A stretch of DNA of 64,000 bases from OCS116 cluster bacterium AG-390-I16 (lineage in GTDB: Bacteria; Pseudomonadota; Alphaproteobacteria; MED-G09): NCBI GenBank assembly GCA_003279705.1, contig QCGZ01000002.1, positions 3,620-67,619 of the forward strand, read 5' to 3'. A model generated the notes under the pieces. That model did not search any database. It saw nothing but the letters and a program-made list of their open reading frames with translations, and had not been told where the DNA came from. Of this stretch, positions 1,858 through 41,716 are shown piece after piece. Position numbers and translations under genes: made by a program. Each line of letters opens with the position of its first letter. The first letter of the stretch is position 1.

Positions 1858-2568
1858 CTAAATAGATGTCCAAGTATTATCAATTAAAACTTCAGAAGAA
1901 TTAAAGCTATTTTTATAATCCATTTTACTTGAACCTTCTACCCAATAACCTAAATAAACATATTTTTTACTCATTTCCTTAGCTAATCTGAAGTGGTCTA
2001 TAATTATATACTTACCAAATGAATTTTTAAGAAAAGAGTCAGTATAAAATGAATAAACCATTGATAAAGCTCCCTCTAAAAAATCTGATATAACACAACC
2101 TACTAATTCATCCTTGTAATAATATTCATAGATCTTTGTAATGATACCAGGGGGGGTAAACATTTTACAATAATCATCAAAATTCATTTCATTCATTTCA
2201 CTATCACAGTGTTTAAATTTTAGATATTTTTTAAAAAGTAAAAACTGTTCTTCAGTAGGTTTGTCAGATAGTTTTTTTATAAAAAGATTTTTATTTTTAT
2301 TTAAAATTCTTTTATTACTTTTTGATAATGTAAATTCATTTACATTTATTCTTATCGATCTGCATGAATTGCAATTTGCACACACTTGATTATATAAAAT
2401 ATTATGACTTCTTCTAAAACCATTTTTAATAAGAAACTCATATTCGTTTGACTTGTTAATATCATTCATTATCAAAAATATTTTTTTTTCATCTCTATTA
2501 GTTAGATATGGGCAGGGCTCTGTATTTGATAGATAAAAGTCATGATTATTTTTATTTATTTTATTCAT
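1858..2568 (-). CDS. bpt: arginyl/leucyl-tRNA--protein transferase family (Bpt, N-end rule)
   Basis: 236 aa with the CPYL motif near the N-terminus and GFRRS...Y...C..C..C..R, characteristic of the ATE_N/ATE_C domains. Confidence 0.8.
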   Translation of the reverse strand: MNKINKNNHDFYLSNTEPCPYLTNRDEKKIFLIMNDINKSNEYEFLIKNGFRRSHNILYNQVCANCNSCRSIRINVNEFTLSKSNKRILNKNKNLFIKKLSDKPTEEQFLLFKKYLKFKHCDSEMNEMNFDDYCKMFTPPGIITKIYEYYYKDELVGCVISDFLEGALSMVYSFYTDSFLKNSFGKYIIIDHFRLAKEMSKKYVYLGYWVEGSSKMDYKNSFNSSEVLIDNTWTSI

Positions 2569-2577
2569 TATTATTCT

Positions 2578-4398
2578 TTAAAAACCCATATATGTAATCA
2601 TTAAAGTATAAGTGAGCCAAAGTATTATTACTAATGGAATTCCTGAAATTAGGAAATCTTTAAATTTATAATTTCCTGGACCCATAACCATTAAATTTGT
2701 CTGATAACCCATGGGTGTTGCGAACGAACAGTTTGCAGCAAAAATTATGCAGTAAATAAATGGTTCTGGTTCCATTTTTAAATCTAAAGCTAAACTTATT
2801 GCTATAGGCGTAAATAAAACTGCTGTAGCATTGTTACTAATAAAATTAGTAATAATCGCTACAAAGATGAAAAGAATTGATAAGACAGCTATAATAGATA
2901 AATCTAATGTTAAATCATAAATGCTATCTGCTAAAAATTTTGCGCCACCTGTTTCTTGAAGAGCAATTGACAGCATAATTGTTGACGCAACTAATAAATA
3001 AATTCTTGGATCAAGTGACATAACAGCATCTTTTACATTTAAAACTCTAAAAATTAGCATTAAGGCAGCCCCCATAACAGCTGCAGCGGTGATATTAAAG
3101 AGACCTGATGATGCAAGAAAAATTGTAGCTACAAATATTAATCTCGCTCTCAAAGCAAATAATTTTGATGGAAGGTATATTGTTGACCATTCAATTGGAA
3201 AGATATCTTTAATACCTCTAAGCGATCTTATTGATTTTTCAGATCCTTTTAAAAGAATAATATTTCCTGGATTAAGCTTAAGTGAGTCTAAAGTTTCAAT
3301 CTCTGTACTTACCCCCTGTTGAATTCCTACAACTTTACAGTTTACCTCACTTTCAAAATTAGTTTGATTTAAGCTTCTGCCAATTAAAAATGAACCAGGA
3401 GTAATTGCAGCCTCAATTATAATCTCTGGTTTAGTTGTTTCAGATAGGGTGCTTATACTATCAAAAATTGGATCATTCCTTTTTAAGGCATTTGTTAAAT
3501 TACCTTTTGTAATTGATAATGTAATTTTATCATTAAATTCTATTTCTAAATCATCGTAAGGTGGTAATAATTTTTTTTTGTTTCTTGTTATAAGACTAAT
3601 TGAACAATTTTCCATTTCAGGTAATAGTCCTGAGATAAATTTTTTACCAATTAATGGATTACCACCTTCGATTAAAATTTCTACAATGTATTGCTTACCA
3701 TCATTTTGAAAATCATCTATATTTTCATTATCTTTCTTATTAAAAGTCTTGAGAATAATTGGTAACAAAAAGGTAGCATAAATAAAGCCCACAAGAGCAA
3801 GAATCATTCCTTGTTTAGTAAAATCAAAGAAACCAATTTCCTTTCCTATTGTAGAATAAACTGAACCAGAAACGAGAAGATTTGTTGAGGAACCTATCAA
3901 TGTTGTCATCCCACCTAAAATACAGACATATGAAAGTGGAATAAGTATATATTTTGATGGTTGGTCTAACTGTTTACACAATGATAAAATTATTGGAATA
4001 AACATAACTATTATTGGGGTATTATTTAACAACGCACTTAAAATAAAAACCAAAAACATTACTGATATGAATTTAATTTGGGTGTTATGAGATTTATCTC
4101 CTGATATCCAAACGGCAATATCTTCAAGAGCCCCAGTAACAAGCAATCCATGGCCGATAATAAGTAAACACATTAAAGCTATTAATGCAGGATTTGCAAA
4201 TCCCCTCAATATGACCTCTAAAGAAACAGGTACACCTGAAACAGCTCCCAAAATTGGACTATTCTGGAATATTATTATTAAAATACTTATTATAGCTAAT
4301 GATGTTATTTCAATAGGTATTTTATCTATAGAGAATAAAATTACGCTTATGAATATTAAACCAAAAATAAACCACATATATAAATCAACAGAAAACAT
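2578..4398 (-). CDS. SLC13/DASS-type anion permease with central TrkA-C domains
   Basis: 606 aa. Hydrophobic N- and C-terminal halves flank a roughly 200-aa soluble insert, the architecture of TrkA-C-containing ArsB/NhaD-superfamily transporters. Confidence 0.7.
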   Translation of the reverse strand: MFSVDLYMWFIFGLIFISVILFSIDKIPIEITSLAIISILIIIFQNSPILGAVSGVPVSLEVILRGFANPALIALMCLLIIGHGLLVTGALEDIAVWISGDKSHNTQIKFISVMFLVFILSALLNNTPIIVMFIPIILSLCKQLDQPSKYILIPLSYVCILGGMTTLIGSSTNLLVSGSVYSTIGKEIGFFDFTKQGMILALVGFIYATFLLPIILKTFNKKDNENIDDFQNDGKQYIVEILIEGGNPLIGKKFISGLLPEMENCSISLITRNKKKLLPPYDDLEIEFNDKITLSITKGNLTNALKRNDPIFDSISTLSETTKPEIIIEAAITPGSFLIGRSLNQTNFESEVNCKVVGIQQGVSTEIETLDSLKLNPGNIILLKGSEKSIRSLRGIKDIFPIEWSTIYLPSKLFALRARLIFVATIFLASSGLFNITAAAVMGAALMLIFRVLNVKDAVMSLDPRIYLLVASTIMLSIALQETGGAKFLADSIYDLTLDLSIIAVLSILFIFVAIITNFISNNATAVLFTPIAISLALDLKMEPEPFIYCIIFAANCSFATPMGYQTNLMVMGPGNYKFKDFLISGIPLVIILWLTYTLMITYMGF

Positions 4399-4405
4399 AT
4401 TATTT

Positions 4406-4843
4406 CTAGCTCAATAAGTTAAATTTTGTTTTAAAGATATAGTCATGAATACATTTTCTCTCATCATTTACTAGAGGAATTATTAAAGAAATTAACAAAA
4501 CTAAACCAATAGGAGTTACTATAAAAAACAGAAAATTATAAATTAATAATTCTTTAGTGTTTAGTTTCTTATTTTTATTATTAACTAATCCTATCTTAAA
4601 AATTTTCATACCAAATGTTGAGCCATTTTCATTTCCTATTGAAAAAGAGTAATAACTTACAATTACTACTGGAATAATAAATAAAATTGCCACGTTAAAT
4701 AAGTTTAATGTAAAAAAATTAATAATTTTGAAAATAATAACCGTGATTGTTATTAACGACAAGCATATCAATAGATCGAGAATACATGCCTTTATTCTGT
4801 TAATCAGTATTTGATCATAATATGTTAATTTATAATTTTTCAT
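4406..4843 (-). CDS. RDD family membrane protein
   Basis: 145 aa with three TM segments. N-terminal R..A.ILDLL and C-terminal IHDYIFKT fit the R-D-D pattern. Confidence 0.55.
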   Translation of the reverse strand: MKNYKLTYYDQILINRIKACILDLLICLSLITITVIIFKIINFFTLNLFNVAILFIIPVVIVSYYSFSIGNENGSTFGMKIFKIGLVNNKNKKLNTKELLIYNFLFFIVTPIGLVLLISLIIPLVNDERKCIHDYIFKTKFNLLS

Positions 4844-18190: not shown

Positions 18191-18991
18191 ATGGAGAATA
18201 GTTTGAATGATAATTATAATGAACAATTAGATTTGTTTCATGTTAATCTGGATGGCTTCGAAGGTCCTCTAGATTTGTTGTTATCTTTAGCAAAAGAACA
18301 AAAAGTTGATCTTTTAGAAATTTCAATACTAGAACTAGCTTCTCAATATTTAAACTTTATTGATCAAATGAAAAAAATTGATATTGATTTGGCTGCTGAT
18401 TATATTGTCATGGCATCGTGGTTAGCTTTTTTGAAGTCAAAATTGCTTTTACCTGATCAGGATGATGAAGATGTTTCCGCAAAAGAATTATCTGCTATCT
18501 TAGCTTTTAGACTTAGAAGGCTTGAGGTAATGAGAGAAGTTGGTTCAAAGCTTATAACTAGGGATAGGGAAGGTATTCATGTCTTTAGAAGGGGCATGCC
18601 CGAAAATATATTTTTAATTAAAAATTTTAATCATAAAGATACACTTTTTGACTTAATTTCTTCTTATTCTGGATTAAGAAATAGAAATTATGATAATAGT
18701 TGGAAACCAAGAGTTTTTTCAATATTTTCTATTGAGGATGCAAGAAATCGATTGGAAAAAATGCTAGGGACTATAGTAGATTGGACAAAAATTGAAGATT
18801 TTCTTCCTGTAAATAATGATGTATCAGAGGAAGGAGTTTTATTTAGAAAAAGTTCCTTAGCTTCAATTTTTTCTGCATCTTTAGAGTTATCAAAAGAAGG
18901 CATGATTGAAATAAACCAAAATAAAAATTTTGGATCAATTAAATTTAAAATTAAAGAGAATAGATCTAATATTAATGAGATGTTGGCATGA
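18191..18991 (+). CDS. scpA: segregation and condensation protein A
   Basis: 266 aa with FEGPLDLLLSLAKEQKVDLLEISI, typical ScpA. Translationally coupled to scpB. Confidence 0.9.
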   Translation: MENSLNDNYNEQLDLFHVNLDGFEGPLDLLLSLAKEQKVDLLEISILELASQYLNFIDQMKKIDIDLAADYIVMASWLAFLKSKLLLPDQDDEDVSAKELSAILAFRLRRLEVMREVGSKLITRDREGIHVFRRGMPENIFLIKNFNHKDTLFDLISSYSGLRNRNYDNSWKPRVFSIFSIEDARNRLEKMLGTIVDWTKIEDFLPVNNDVSEEGVLFRKSSLASIFSASLELSKEGMIEINQNKNFGSIKFKIKENRSNINEMLA

Positions 18992-35625: not shown

Positions 35626-35701
35626 GGGCCCTTAGCTCAGTTGGTAGAGCAGCTGACTTTTAATCAGCTTGTCGCAGGTTCGACCCCTGCAGGGCTCACC
35701 A
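35626..35701 (+). tRNA. tRNA-Lys (anticodon UUU), CCA encoded
   Basis: Hand-folded cloverleaf. Acceptor GGGCCCT/AGGGCTC, D arm GCTC-AGTTGGTA-GAGC, anticodon arm GCTGA-CTTTTAA-TCAGC, variable TTGTC, T arm GCAGG-TTCGACC-CCTGC, discriminator A plus CCA. Confidence 0.93.
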
Positions 35702-35703
35702 AG
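35656..35703 (+). repeat. attL-like core (3' half of tRNA-Lys plus 2 nt)
   Basis: ACTTTTAATCAGCTTGTCGCAGGTTCGACCCCTGCAGGGCTCACCAAG, identical to 37838-37885. Confidence 0.9.
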
Positions 35704-35763
35704 GTATACCGTAGAAAATAGCCATTATTCTTATTTTCACTATTTAACTAAAGCTTTCATTTT

Positions 35764-35794
35764 TAAAAGTTTCCGCAAAGTTTCCGCAAAAAAA
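35764..35794 (+). repeat. 31-bp direct repeat R1 (tandem GTTTCCGCAAA doublet plus A-tract)
   Basis: TAAAAGTTTCCGCAAAGTTTCCGCAAAAAAA, identical to 37686-37716. Confidence 0.9.
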
Positions 35795-35928
35795 TTGCTC
35801 TATCTAAAAATTTAATTAATTTCTTATTTTTTAACTTATTGATTCTTTTAATTAAAAAAAATTACTATGCTCTCTACACAGGGTGTCATATGATATTAAA
35901 TAAGCTTGTCGGTGGTAGAGGGTAAATA

Positions 35929-37674
35929 ATGAATAAAAATCTAATAATAGCGTTCTTAATGGGAACAATTATAACATTACTTGTTGTTAATTATTTACCA
36001 AAATTTGATATTAAAATTGAAGTGACTGAGAAATCTGAAACTTTGAAAAAAGATAAAACAGAAAAAAATGAATTATCTGAGCAAACTTCTATTGTTGATC
36101 GTCTAAAAAGTAAAATTATCCCTGAACCAATTCCTGAAATAACAGCTGATGAATTTTTATTACAAAATTATCCAGATACAAGAATTTATAATTATAGAGA
36201 ATTCTTTAAAGGTGAGCAATCTAAGTATATAAAAAATGGCAAACCAAAAGCTAGAAGAACTCAAACATTATCAAAAAAAGTTGGTGCTGATTTCTTGAAG
36301 GCCCAAGAAGCACTTGCTGAAGAAAAAACAGATGAGTCTCTTAAGATATTAGAAGAACTTTTAAGTAATCAAGAATTAAGTATTTTTGAAAGAGCAACTA
36401 TCTATAGGCTTCAAGGTTATGTCTATGCTGAAAAAGAAGATTATCAGAAATCTATTGAATCTTTACAGCAATCTCTCTCCTATAATGTACTTGAACCTCA
36501 AGCCCAATTAGATCTTCAATTTAGTATAGCTCAACTTTTTCTTGCTATTGATCAATGGGGAAATGGACTTCGTGAAATTAATGATTGGGGTAGAAACTCT
36601 GAATCATTAGGGGTCGATCCTGGTCCATTATTTCATGCCTTACTGTCTCAAATATATTTATACCTTGCATCTGAAACGGAAACGGGATCTTTAGCGGAAA
36701 AGCAATTTTATGAAAAAGCTGCACCACATGCACAAACTGCTATATTAATAGCTTCAAAGCCAAGAGAAAATTGGTATCAAATTTATTTATCAATTCTTTT
36801 ATTTGGTGAGAAGTATGAAGATGCTAGACCAATACTAGAAGAGATGGTTAAAAGATTTCCTGAAAGAGATACTTATAAAAGACAACTCTCAGGATTATAT
36901 TATAAATTAGATGTAAATGACGGATTGGTTCCACCAGAGAAATCATCACAAGAAATTGTTTCAACTCCTGATTATGGCGGTCCTCAATTTGGGAAATTTT
37001 CTTCATCAATTGATGCACATTTACTTCCAATTGTTAAATTTCCTCCTAAATATCCTGATAGAGCGCTGAAACAAAAAATTGAAGGTTGGGTTTTACTTGA
37101 ATTTACAGTTACAGAAACAGGTGAAGTCTTAAATCCTGTTGTAATTGATTCAGACCCACCAGGAATTTTTAATAGATCTGCTTTGAGAACAATAGCTCAA
37201 TGGAAATATAAACCAATAATTGAAGATGGTAAGGCTGTTAAAATAAAAGGTGTTCAACATTTAATTACTTATGAACTAAATGAACCGAAAAAAATTATGA
37301 GAAGACCCGCTCCATCAGGCAATAATGATATAACTAAAGTAGATAGAATAAGCAATAAAGTTTTGAAAGAATATAATGCATCAGAAAACAGTGACGTAAT
37401 AATTAAATCTAGTTTTCCACCTAAATATCCAAGAAGAGCTAAAGACCATGGTGTTGAAGGATGGATTTTAACAGAACATACTGTTACTTCTGATGGAGAT
37501 GTAGTCAATCCAGTTGTAATTGATGCAGACCCACCAGGAATTTTTAATAGATCTGCTATGAGAACAATAGTTCAATGGAAATACTTACCTGCTAAAAAAA
37601 ATGGTAAAGCTGTTGGAAGAACTGGTGTAAGAAATGTAATGACATACACATTAGAAGATAAAAATAAAAAATAG
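35929..37674 (+). CDS. membrane-anchored TPR-like protein with two tandem TonB C-terminal domains
   Basis: 581 aa. N-terminal TM helix, K/E-rich linker and a helical-repeat region. Two TonB_C-like modules follow (PKYPDRALKQKIEGWVLLEFTV...YKP and PKYPRRAKDHGVEGWILTEHTV...YLP). Confidence 0.8.
   Translation: MNKNLIIAFLMGTIITLLVVNYLPKFDIKIEVTEKSETLKKDKTEKNELSEQTSIVDRLKSKIIPEPIPEITADEFLLQNYPDTRIYNYREFFKGEQSKYIKNGKPKARRTQTLSKKVGADFLKAQEALAEEKTDESLKILEELLSNQELSIFERATIYRLQGYVYAEKEDYQKSIESLQQSLSYNVLEPQAQLDLQFSIAQLFLAIDQWGNGLREINDWGRNSESLGVDPGPLFHALLSQIYLYLASETETGSLAEKQFYEKAAPHAQTAILIASKPRENWYQIYLSILLFGEKYEDARPILEEMVKRFPERDTYKRQLSGLYYKLDVNDGLVPPEKSSQEIVSTPDYGGPQFGKFSSSIDAHLLPIVKFPPKYPDRALKQKIEGWVLLEFTVTETGEVLNPVVIDSDPPGIFNRSALRTIAQWKYKPIIEDGKAVKIKGVQHLITYELNEPKKIMRRPAPSGNNDITKVDRISNKVLKEYNASENSDVIIKSSFPPKYPRRAKDHGVEGWILTEHTVTSDGDVVNPVVIDADPPGIFNRSAMRTIVQWKYLPAKKNGKAVGRTGVRNVMTYTLEDKNKK
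37132..37208 (+). repeat. intragenic repeat copy A (TonB_C module 1 core)
   Basis: 77 nt matching 37507-37583 with 4 mismatches, offset exactly 375 nt (125 codons). Confidence 0.85.
37507..37583 (+). repeat. intragenic repeat copy B (TonB_C module 2 core)
   Basis: See copy A. The flanking parts of the two modules are much more diverged at the nucleotide level. Confidence 0.85.
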
Positions 37675-37685
37675 GGTAGAATACC

Positions 37686-37716
37686 TAAAAGTTTCCGCAA
37701 AGTTTCCGCAAAAAAA
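37686..37716 (+). repeat. 31-bp direct repeat R2
   Basis: Identical to R1. It starts 12 nt after the stop codon of the TonB-like gene. Confidence 0.9.
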
Positions 37717-37735
37717 CCTAATGAATAGGTTTTTA
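37711..37735 (+). terminator. AT-rich hairpin terminator after the TonB-like gene
   Basis: AAAAACCTA-ATGAA-TAGGTTTTT. The 5' arm overlaps the A-tract of R2. Confidence 0.4.
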
Positions 37736-37837
37736 AAAGATTTTAAAAATATATAGGTTCTTATAAAATATAAGCAATATAAAGGTTTCTATGTAAATTA
37801 TTGATTTAATTGAGTTATTAAAAATCTATATTTAGTT

Positions 37838-37885
37838 ACTTTTAATCAGCTTGTCGCAGGTTCGACCCCTGCAGGGCTCACCAAG
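37838..37885 (+). repeat. attR-like core, a truncated pseudo-tRNA-Lys (3' half only)
   Basis: Perfect copy of 35656-35703. No 5' acceptor or D arm lies upstream, so it is not a functional tRNA. Confidence 0.9.
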
Positions 37886-38010
37886 TTATAACCGCTTTAT
37901 ACTGCTCCACTTTCCTAGGTCTTCTAATTATTTTTATTGTCAATTATTTATCAAAATTTGATTTTATTATGATATTGTAAAGTGAAATAAATATATATGG
38001 AGTATTTACT

Positions 38011-40998: not shown

Positions 40999-41089
40999 TT
41001 CGTTTCTCCATTTAAAATAATAACACTTAATTGTTTATTTTTTTTAAAATTAATTAGAAAATAACAATTTATAAGTAATGGAGAATAAA

Positions 41090-41716
41090 ATGTTACAGGT
41101 ACATCATTTAAATAATTCAAGATCTCAGAGAATATTGTGGCTTTTAGAAGAATTAAAAGCTCCCTATGAAATAATTCATTACAATAGAGATTCAGAAACT
41201 AATTTAGCTCCAGAGAAACTTAAAGATATACACATGTTAGGTAAATCTCCTGTTATTAACGATAATGGAAAGGTTATAATTGAGTCAGCTGCGATTTCTA
41301 CTTATATAATTGATCAATATGCTCCCGCGGATTTTTCTCCCAGTAAGGATGATGGTGACTATTATGAATATCAACAGCTTATGCATTATGCTGAAGGATC
41401 AGCAATGTTACCAATGTTACTCCTTCTTTATTCAAGCTCACTAGGAAAAAATGCAGAACCATTAATGAATAGAATTTTTTCAGAGATAAATCTTCATATA
41501 GGTTATCTATCTGAATGCCTCGGGGAAAATGATTTTTTCTTTAGAAATAAATTTTCTGGTTTAGATACAATGATTTCTTTTGTTTTAGAGGCCGCAAAAA
41601 TTTCTGACTCATTAAAATCATTTCCAAATTTAATAAATGCTCTAGATAATTATCAATCAAGGTCTGCTTATAAAAAAGCATTAGAAAAAGGCGGTGAATA
41701 TATTTTAGGATCTTAG
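41090..41716 (+). CDS. glutathione S-transferase family protein
   Basis: LQVHHLNNSRSQRILWLLEEL...GKSPVI thioredoxin-like N-domain plus a helical C-domain. GGAGA precedes the ATG at 41090; the ORF-track start is 41078. Confidence 0.8.
   Translation: MLQVHHLNNSRSQRILWLLEELKAPYEIIHYNRDSETNLAPEKLKDIHMLGKSPVINDNGKVIIESAAISTYIIDQYAPADFSPSKDDGDYYEYQQLMHYAEGSAMLPMLLLLYSSSLGKNAEPLMNRIFSEINLHIGYLSECLGENDFFFRNKFSGLDTMISFVLEAAKISDSLKSFPNLINALDNYQSRSAYKKALEKGGEYILGS

Follow-up and report, generated by a model that had tools for sequence, protein, structure and literature searches.

What are two perfect 31-bp direct repeats doing on either side of a single gene, next to a transfer RNA (tRNA) gene? The question is raised by a stretch of 64,000 nucleotides (nt) of OCS116 cluster bacterium AG-390-I16 (contig QCGZ01000002.1, positions 3,620 to 67,619), here called the window, in which the gene for a protein of 581 amino acids (aa) lies just past tRNA-Lys(UUU) between two such repeats. 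A first-pass annotation, made from the letters alone, had offered two readings: the repeats could be arm-type integrase sites kept by a small island that lacks the enzyme (option A), or the 31-mer could itself be a recombination site (option B). We conclude that the two 31-mers are very probably arm-type sites of a lambda-type heterobivalent tyrosine integrase, carried by an island at tRNA-Lys that retains its attachment (att) sites only. Option A is supported by phage attP sites of the same geometry, in which the repeat co-varies with the N-terminal domain of the adjacent integrase.

The 31-mer, TAAAAGTTTCCGCAAAGTTTCCGCAAAAAAA, is present in two exact copies on the + strand of the window (Table 1), as described before, identical at 31/31 positions and with all four 11-bp units (GTTTCCGCAAA, two per copy) intact. 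The first copy starts 62 nt past the tRNA-Lys end and ends 134 nt ahead of the ATG at 35929; the second starts 11 nt past the stop (37674) and ends 121 nt ahead of a duplicated tRNA 3′ part. These recomputed coordinates confirm the spacings to tRNA, gene and tRNA fragment given in the first-pass annotation. Its remark that the full motif was not seen elsewhere in the window also stands, as there is no third copy in the 64 kb even when 3 mismatches are allowed; 100 shuffles gave 0 matches. The two sites are also the only exact tandem 11-mers with at least three G/C in the window. A solitary GTTTCCGCAAA at 18473, within a coding region, looks like a chance occurrence. The ‘half motifs’ that had been placed at 36673-36701 could not be recovered, neither strand coming within 1 mismatch of the 11-mer.

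In the naming used for lambda, attL reads B-core-P′ (35626-35794) and attR P-core-B′ (37686-37890). The island thereby retains a 53-nt core duplication, a P′ arm and a P arm, with an intact doublet of 11-bp units in each arm. The duplicated block comprises the last 46 nt of tRNA-Lys and 7 flanking nt, with one mismatch between the copies (35704 G vs 37886 T). The G in attL is as on the phage P′ side and the T in attR as in the flank of a related contig (L012), which is compatible, weakly, with a crossover inside the tRNA part.

Relatives of the window were found among contigs of marine metagenomes (Tara and others) and of two metagenome-assembled genomes (MAGs) by their Tgt or flavodoxin-like proteins, which are identical to those of the window. 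Four of these contigs (L006, L007, L008 and L011) have tgt and tRNA-Lys, the latter followed directly by an open reading frame (ORF) of 63 aa, and lack exactly a 2182-bp unit; this unit is bounded by the tRNA core, and no 31-mer is left behind. Three further contigs (L001, L009 and L012) end exactly at the tRNA end or within the core, as expected for a heterogeneous population. In L002, the same Tgt protein and the same tRNA are followed by a different 60-nt spacer, the doublet TAAAAGTTTGTCCAAAGTTTGTCCAAAAAAA, in which CCG is replaced by GTC in both units, a leader shared with the window and a different gene. Metagenome contigs cover the leader and P arm of the window more deeply than its cargo, which fits other elements sharing those parts. 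A comparison of strains, one of the checks suggested by the first-pass annotation, has thus returned both different cargo with a different doublet and precise empty sites at the same tRNA. The two scenarios by which it would have been undone, a dispersed repeat of repetitive extragenic palindromic (REP)-like or terminator type and a sequence flanking a vertically inherited gene, are both excluded.

Phage attachment sites and their integrases

Viral contigs were searched with a degenerate pattern and then with the integrase thus found, which yielded L004, L071 (the L005 contig), L072, L073, L075-L079 and L081-L087. Eight of these phage loci carry both arms (L071, L072, L073, L075, L077, L079, L082 and L085), in a constant order: the stop of a 99-aa gene, a doublet, ~125-130 nt, a tRNA 3′ fragment (~46 nt), 65-80 nt, a second doublet and an integrase gene. 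The same attP order is found in L086. The stop codon of the 99-aa gene abuts or just precedes the P doublet, and in contigs long enough for both arms this gene is preceded by tail, holin and other structural-end genes. ARAGORN found no full tRNA in L005. The integrases are of the tyrosine type, 440-470 aa in length, and their genes lie ~110-630 nt past the P′ doublet.

The spacing of the window falls within that of the phages. From the start of the P doublet to the ACCA end (10 sites) there are 190-196 nt in phages and 193 nt in the window. The gap from ACCA to the P′ doublet was measured at 14 sites; it is 67 nt in the window and, elsewhere, 65-68 nt at 11 sites and 78-80 nt at the other two, L082 and L085. 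The attL core sequence is identical in the phage attP of L085 and L087; the P′ spacer of the window is 71% identical to those of L087 and L081, and alignment reveals conserved blocks common to the P arm of the window and those of the phages. Judged by these likenesses, the arms of the island appear to be derived from a phage attP.

Two features of the phage loci may be recorded here. The units of the P doublet of L086 (1118-1145) lie 10 nt apart, and those of its P′ doublet (1385-1415) 11 nt apart with one base different; this is the sole departure from the 11-nt period. The slot between P′ doublet and int holds an ORF of 172 aa in L071 (~2484-3000), ~60 aa in L072 (~2822-3000) and 56 aa in L079 (1432-1602), and is empty in L073, L075 and L077; it is a variable, ‘moron’-like position beside attP.

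The doublets vary between phages together with the integrases. Eleven integrase loci represent nine doublet types, each with its own version of residues 5-33 in the putative N-terminal arm-binding domain. The units are GTTTCTGCAAA in L071; GTATTCACAAA in L072 and L073; GTTTTCGCAAA in L075 (integrase P0002); GTTGTGCCAAA in L077 (P0005) and L079 (P0008); GTTGTCCCAAA in L081 (P0012); TTGTGTCCCA[T/A] in L082 (P0018); GTTGCACAAAA in L085 (P0014); GTGTCACAAA in L086 (P0016); and, in L087 (P0011), GTTTCCGCAAA. Units match within a doublet and between arms in every locus, with single-base differences only in L072, L082 and L086. Two further doublet types are known only without an enzyme, and integrase P0004 (L080) has no attP upstream of its gene and hence no doublet.

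In an alignment of the integrases, variation is concentrated in residues ~5-33. L071, L072 and L075 illustrate how local the change is: the variable positions of the four units aside, ~690 nt of the 99-aa gene and attP differ at a few scattered positions, and the int genes differ almost only in their first 120 nt (15-24 mismatches per 60 nt), the rest showing mostly 0-4 mismatches per 60 nt, with three more divergent stretches in L075. Pairs of integrases with different doublets that are 89-99% identical outside the N-domain are 48-77% identical within it. Where a doublet is held in common, the N-domain is 72% and the remaining protein 64% identical (L072 and L073), or 100% and 50% (P0005 and P0008). 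The most similar of the different N-domains, those of P0018 and P0016 (77%), go with doublets that share GTGTC.CA. This covariation of nine N-domain types with nine doublet types indicates that the doublets are probably recognised by the integrase N-domain. Another candidate for the specificity determinant, the SNase-like protein of 99 aa encoded next door, was rejected, being 100% identical across different doublets.

The attP of L079 (1200-1256) contains a different tRNA 3′ fragment from that of L077, with CTTCTAA in the anticodon loop; reading by eye suggests that it stems from tRNA-Arg(UCU). Since L077 and L079 have the same N-domain and doublet and different cores, core and arm specificity assort independently.

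The enzymes form a small family, with 20 clusters among 5.8 billion proteins; the INPHARED cultured phages yielded only distant matches to the catalytic half (<32% identity) and no match to a structural-region protein. The family gives a Pfam Phage_integrase match of 7e-19, and R281, K315, H387, R390, H415 and Y426 are invariant in 23 integrase sequences. Guided by the HxxR motif and by what is generally known of such enzymes, we take these residues to be the catalytic RKHRH pentad and the tyrosine nucleophile. Of 15 N-domains, 14 have an Arm-DNA-bind_4 match, at threshold (22.3 bits, best E-value 6e-5). An AlphaFold model of residues 1-60 consists of three beta-strands and a helix (predicted local distance difference test score ~80-85), the same topology as in known arm-binding domains.

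A cognate enzyme for the window is present in L087. This contig opens inside the core with GTTCGACCCCTGCAGGGCTCACCAAGGTATAACCGC, which equals the window tRNA-Lys 3′ end plus the empty-site flank, and continues with a 68-nt P′ spacer, GTTTCCGCAAAGTTTCCGCAAA and the integrase P0011. Core and doublet are identical to those of the window; therefore, the island is an att-only element that fits a phage integrase in circulation in the same habitat. The exact CCG 22-mer was not found in viral contigs, and its one match in JGI metagenome contigs was rejected, lying in an unrelated contig of higher GC content without a tRNA. In a scan of genome collections with AGTTTNNNCAAAGTTTNNNCAAAAA, 55 loci were returned, mostly chance matches with unequal units; the relevant loci were only in PS1-clade single-cell amplified genomes and one MAG (L040, L058 and L059).

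A side observation concerns GTTTCCGCAAAGTTTCCGCAAA, which also occurs in rabbit-gut Clostridia MAGs (L043, ~4711-4735, − strand; L048, 3307-3331; L027, 7910-7934), ~150 nt downstream of a tRNA-Ser gene (read by eye) and followed by relaxase (MobA/VirD2), NikA-like and ArdC genes. Its position there is that of one end of an integrated mobilizable element, in a phylum unrelated to the window organism. Probably this doublet, too, is an arm-type site, and the same sequence may be in use far outside marine bacteria.

Integrase-less mini-elements are not confined to the window. The window organism is related to PS1-clade cells, with Tgt proteins 62% identical and the same gyrA-to-tgt-tRNA-Lys synteny. 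A PS1-clade single-cell genome (L059) starts with tRNA-Lys, a 68-nt spacer, a TCG doublet and two defence-like genes (T5orf172/MUG113 and MrcB_N-HNH); at the far end of this first element (E1), TCG recurs in a second doublet, and the P arm there matches those of phages L075 and L071 at 96-97% identity. In the second element (E2), which follows in tandem, a tRNA fragment and the same spacer lead into a CCG doublet, behind which lie the next small genes. TCG doublets also occur, together with a PS1-type core, in the integrase-bearing phage L075. The PS1 backbone recurs in L040 and L058, its doublets there being CTG and TCG, and the L002 mini-element, at the same tRNA in the same species as the window, has a GTC doublet and different cargo. 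The mini-elements of each host lineage thus share their own backbone while the doublets vary.

Parts and surroundings of the island

Table 1. Features of the att-only island at tRNA-Lys in the window (positions in the 64,000-nt stretch)
Feature	Position	Strand	Remarks and basis
tRNA-Lys(UUU) gene	35626-35701	+	bacterial attachment target; 3′ part is the attL core; ARAGORN, Rfam tRNA 70.9 bits
attL copy of 53-nt block	35656-35708	+	from anticodon loop to 7 nt past tRNA end; repeat search
P′ arm spacer	35702-35763	+	tRNA end to 31-mer; has GCCATTAT-type block present in all P′ arms
P′ arm 31-mer	35764-35794	+	probable tandem arm-type units GTTTCCGCAAA at 35769-35779 and 35780-35790, A-rich frame
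Leader	35795-35928	+	common to L002 mini-element of same species, absent from phages
Cargo gene, 581 aa	35929-37674	+	N-terminal hydrophobic segment, TPR region, two TonB C-terminal domains
P arm 31-mer	37686-37716	+	probable tandem arm-type units GTTTCCGCAAA at 37691-37701 and 37702-37712
P arm	37717-37837	+	shares conserved block AAGGTTTCTATGTAAATTATTGATT with phage P arms, to which it is homologous; 61 nt are 85% identical to L004
attR copy of tRNA-Lys 3′ part	37838-37890	+	duplicated core, then conserved chromosomal flank; repeat search, empty-site alignment

The cargo gene is the sole long ORF of the element. Its product matches TonB_C in Pfam (5.4e-35, two stretches) and, weakly, TPR_16, and has no exact match in records elsewhere. 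An Rfam scan of the island returned the tRNA only. In a scan for promoters and terminators, the leader was predicted to have no promoter; nor was a terminator predicted behind the second 31-mer copy, which is followed by an A/T-flanked hairpin. No family integrase is present in the window, the best tblastn match with five family integrases having an E-value of 0.06.

The leader is 92.6% identical to that of L002, and to that of L002 only, over 94 nt (window 35808-35901), and has a mini-ORF of 11 codons (35890-35925, MILNKLVGGRG). A 26-nt stretch of it (35891-35916) is 77% identical to part of the anticodon arm and variable region of the tRNA (35654-35679), and L002 (2365-2390) likewise has 20/26 matches to that tRNA stretch. 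This tRNA-like stretch, which may be either the relic of a core site or a chance likeness, overlaps the mini-ORF; in L002 the mini-ORF is joined in frame to the cargo. A 33-nt stretch near the 5′ end of the cargo coding sequence (35981-36013) recurs in direct orientation, at 88% identity, in the chromosomal flank just past attR (37934-37966).

Upstream of the island lie gyrA, a CTP-transferase-like gene, a peptidyl-prolyl isomerase gene, queA and tgt; on its downstream side follow small ORFs and a gene for a flavodoxin-like protein. Further differences between relatives were noted. A glutathione S-transferase gene (window 41078-41716) is also in L012 and is absent at that position in L006-L010, and a rhodanese-containing two-gene insert is found only in L008 and L013; both are small presence/absence cassettes away from any tRNA. 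In L010 (GCA_002700515.1), positions 1-160 contain the full tRNA-Lys with the same downstream flank and a wholly different upstream sequence without a tgt side, which reflects either a rearrangement, a second locus or a mis-join of the MAG.

How the element may move

In the mechanism that we propose, the 2182-bp segment is an integrated element with phage-type ends: attL consists of the tRNA core, the 62-nt P′ spacer and a doublet, and attR of a doublet, the 121-nt P arm and the core copy. Each doublet would present two head-to-tail 11-bp sites one helical turn apart, each unit binding one Int N-domain. The 2+2 units could thereby provide four sites, one N-domain for each protomer of an integrase tetramer, with the other domains of the protomers acting on the tRNA core and the arms bent onto it. 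The chances seem about even that a phage integrase of the P0011 type, supplied in trans, inserted the window element and could excise it.

Within the phage family, doublets and Int residues ~5-33 are exchanged as a matched set, with at least nine enzyme-linked specificities. Such a swap would affect three short patches, namely the P doublet, the P′ doublet and int codons ~1-40, and would leave the rest of the block of 99-aa gene, attP and int near-identical. This would extend to the mini-elements that carry a doublet with one or two genes (TonB-like, defence-like or membrane proteins). A more tentative proposal, which we hold with somewhat less than even confidence, is that in these temperate marine phages the doublets are interchangeable ‘address labels’, forming at least 9-11 orthogonal pairs of N-domain and arm site, and that each mini-element is moved only by its cognate phage integrase. 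Diversification of these labels would keep co-resident elements at one tRNA from each other's enzymes.

If this is true, streamlined ocean bacteria would have a helper-specific route by which to gain and lose single genes at a tRNA island. A repeat would then have led to a testable mechanism for single-gene cassette traffic in abundant marine bacteria that are streamlined and without obvious gene-transfer machinery. The matched, patch-wise variation is also a natural experiment on arm-site recognition, with nine pairs that differ in few bases and few residues, and these enzyme/site pairs are a possible source of orthogonal integrase/att systems for genome engineering. They further suggest that phages and integrase-borrowing att-only elements compete for one chromosomal site and diversify their labels.

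Several points weigh against arm-type sites served by a phage integrase. The link between N-domain and doublet is correlative, resting on 11 loci and nine types. Overall, the P arm of the window is just 60-69% identical to the available phage P arms, and L087 begins within the core, its P arm lying beyond the contig. The Arm-DNA-bind_4 match, being at threshold, spans the helix half only; among PDB entries, Foldseek returned nothing significant for the N-domain model, and a profile search of the sequences no integrase. Covariation rather than fold is therefore taken as the main evidence. Metagenome contigs on the locus, which are too fragmentary for excision, showed no excised circle or attP junction. 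Finally, a recombination directionality factor may also read the repeats. This last point can be taken further, to a reading in which the doublets mainly serve an excisionase or a recombination directionality factor, not the Int N-domain, as binding sites, which we consider improbable. Factors of the excisionase type often bind direct repeats that lie in tandem about one turn apart, and only ~3 kb on each side of int were inspected, where a distant, co-varying small gene could escape notice. However, the sites are in both arms; within those ~3 kb, covariation among the neighbouring proteins is confined to Int residues 5-33; the 99-aa protein encoded nearby is invariant across doublet types, and the slot between P′ doublet and int holds different ORFs or none.

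The strongest rival accepts the arm-type sites and concerns activity, not identity: the island would be the dead remains of a prophage or of tandem elements, fixed by deletion and immobile. It is a serious possibility, to which we give less than even weight. Neither integrase nor excisionase is present in the element, nor a family integrase in the window, and the fragmentary contigs showed no circle junction. The CCG doublet is rare in the collections searched, and in E1 of L059 the P arm is 96-97% identical to phage and the P′ arm is not, which suggests deletion or a hybrid origin. A dead remnant is, however, argued against by 31-mers that are perfectly preserved in all four units, by precise presence or absence in near-identical strains, and by L002, which at the same tRNA of the same species has the leader in common and a different matched doublet and cargo. 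In the PS1 clade, one backbone is found with three doublets; the labels therefore keep being matched to enzymes, which is hard to expect of inert debris, and the window itself has a counterpart in L087, where a cognate integrase lies beside the same core and doublet. Readings that do away with arm-type sites altogether are far less credible. Option B, in which the 1922-bp unit between the 31-mers entered as an integron-like circular cassette, would account for perfect direct repeats around a single gene and for the different genes that follow similar repeats in other contigs. It is nevertheless highly improbable, as the polymorphic unit is the 2182-bp segment bounded by the tRNA core and empty sites keep no 31-mer; phage doublets flank the tRNA core at fixed distances, not cassettes; the 31-mer has no attC-type inverted repeat or hairpin, and no IntI-like gene is present; and the variable positions follow the integrase N-domain, not a crossover spacer. 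We give equally little credence to operators for a direct-repeat transcription factor (e.g. of OmpR/PhoB type) or to terminator-associated control of the cargo. The head-to-tail period of 11 bp is typical of winged-helix response regulators, one copy lies on each side of the gene, and the hairpin follows copy 2. Against this, doublets occur independently of cargo, also inside phage attP between a lysis-region gene and int, their sequence co-varies with the integrase N-terminus, and the scan found neither a promoter in the leader nor a terminator after copy 2.

Comparison with known systems

The first-pass annotation went too far in holding that the locus matches no described system, for it combines a lambda-type heterobivalent scheme with an att-only element resembling the cis-mobilizable elements (CIMEs) discussed below. 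Arm-type sites and att-only elements are already known kinds. In the open-access literature searched, no description was found of this integrase family, of the patch-wise co-swapping of arm sites and N-domains, or of label-matched mini-elements of one to two genes; modular ‘label swapping’ and such mini-elements appear to be undescribed.

Tyrosine integrases with an arm-binding domain have an extra N-terminal domain besides the core-binding and catalytic domains (PMC8138268). As in lambda-type systems, short repeated sites lie in both attP arms, tens to >100 bp from the core, and integration leaves one arm in attL and the other in attR. In contrast to these systems, there is here one tandem pair per arm, at a fixed distance and in a single orientation (2+2), and the specificity of site and domain is hypervariable, with short-patch swaps between near-identical phages.

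Integron cassettes resemble the island in being single, promoterless-looking genes with short bounding repeats that differ between strains. Unlike them, the island has no attC hairpin, IntI or attI, and the recombining unit is bounded by the tRNA core.

Additive flexible islands linked to tRNA genes and tycheposons are known in aquatic bacteria (bioRxiv 10.1101/2020.12.28.424599; PMC10872708). Like the elements described here, they show older elements displaced inward by successive insertions at a single tRNA, small cargo units bounded by partial tRNA repeats, and a streamlined marine host. The likeness to tycheposons is in layout only, comprising the tRNA target, the partial tRNA repeats and the tandem elements. 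The cargo units described here carry no hallmark gene. A search by term shows ‘arm’ and ‘direct repeat’ to be absent from the tycheposon preprint (10.1101/2020.12.28.424599), and the repeats mentioned in the consulted passages of PMC10872708 are those of the tRNA 3′ end only.

A further parallel is provided by CIMEs of streptococcal integrative and conjugative element (ICE) systems, in which the genes for integration and transfer have been lost and attL and attR are kept (PMC5704250). Like a CIME, the island is integrase-less, with complete attL and attR at a tRNA 3′ end; tandem accretion is seen in L059, and mobilisation by the integrase of a related element may occur. It differs in that its arms are homologous to phage attP beside tail, holin and integrase genes, not to an ICE or an integrative and mobilizable element (IME), in its content of only one or two genes, and in the presence of two host lineages, each with its own backbone and interchangeable doublets. 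The island thus works like a CIME but is not classed as one, its origin not being the decay of an ICE or IME.

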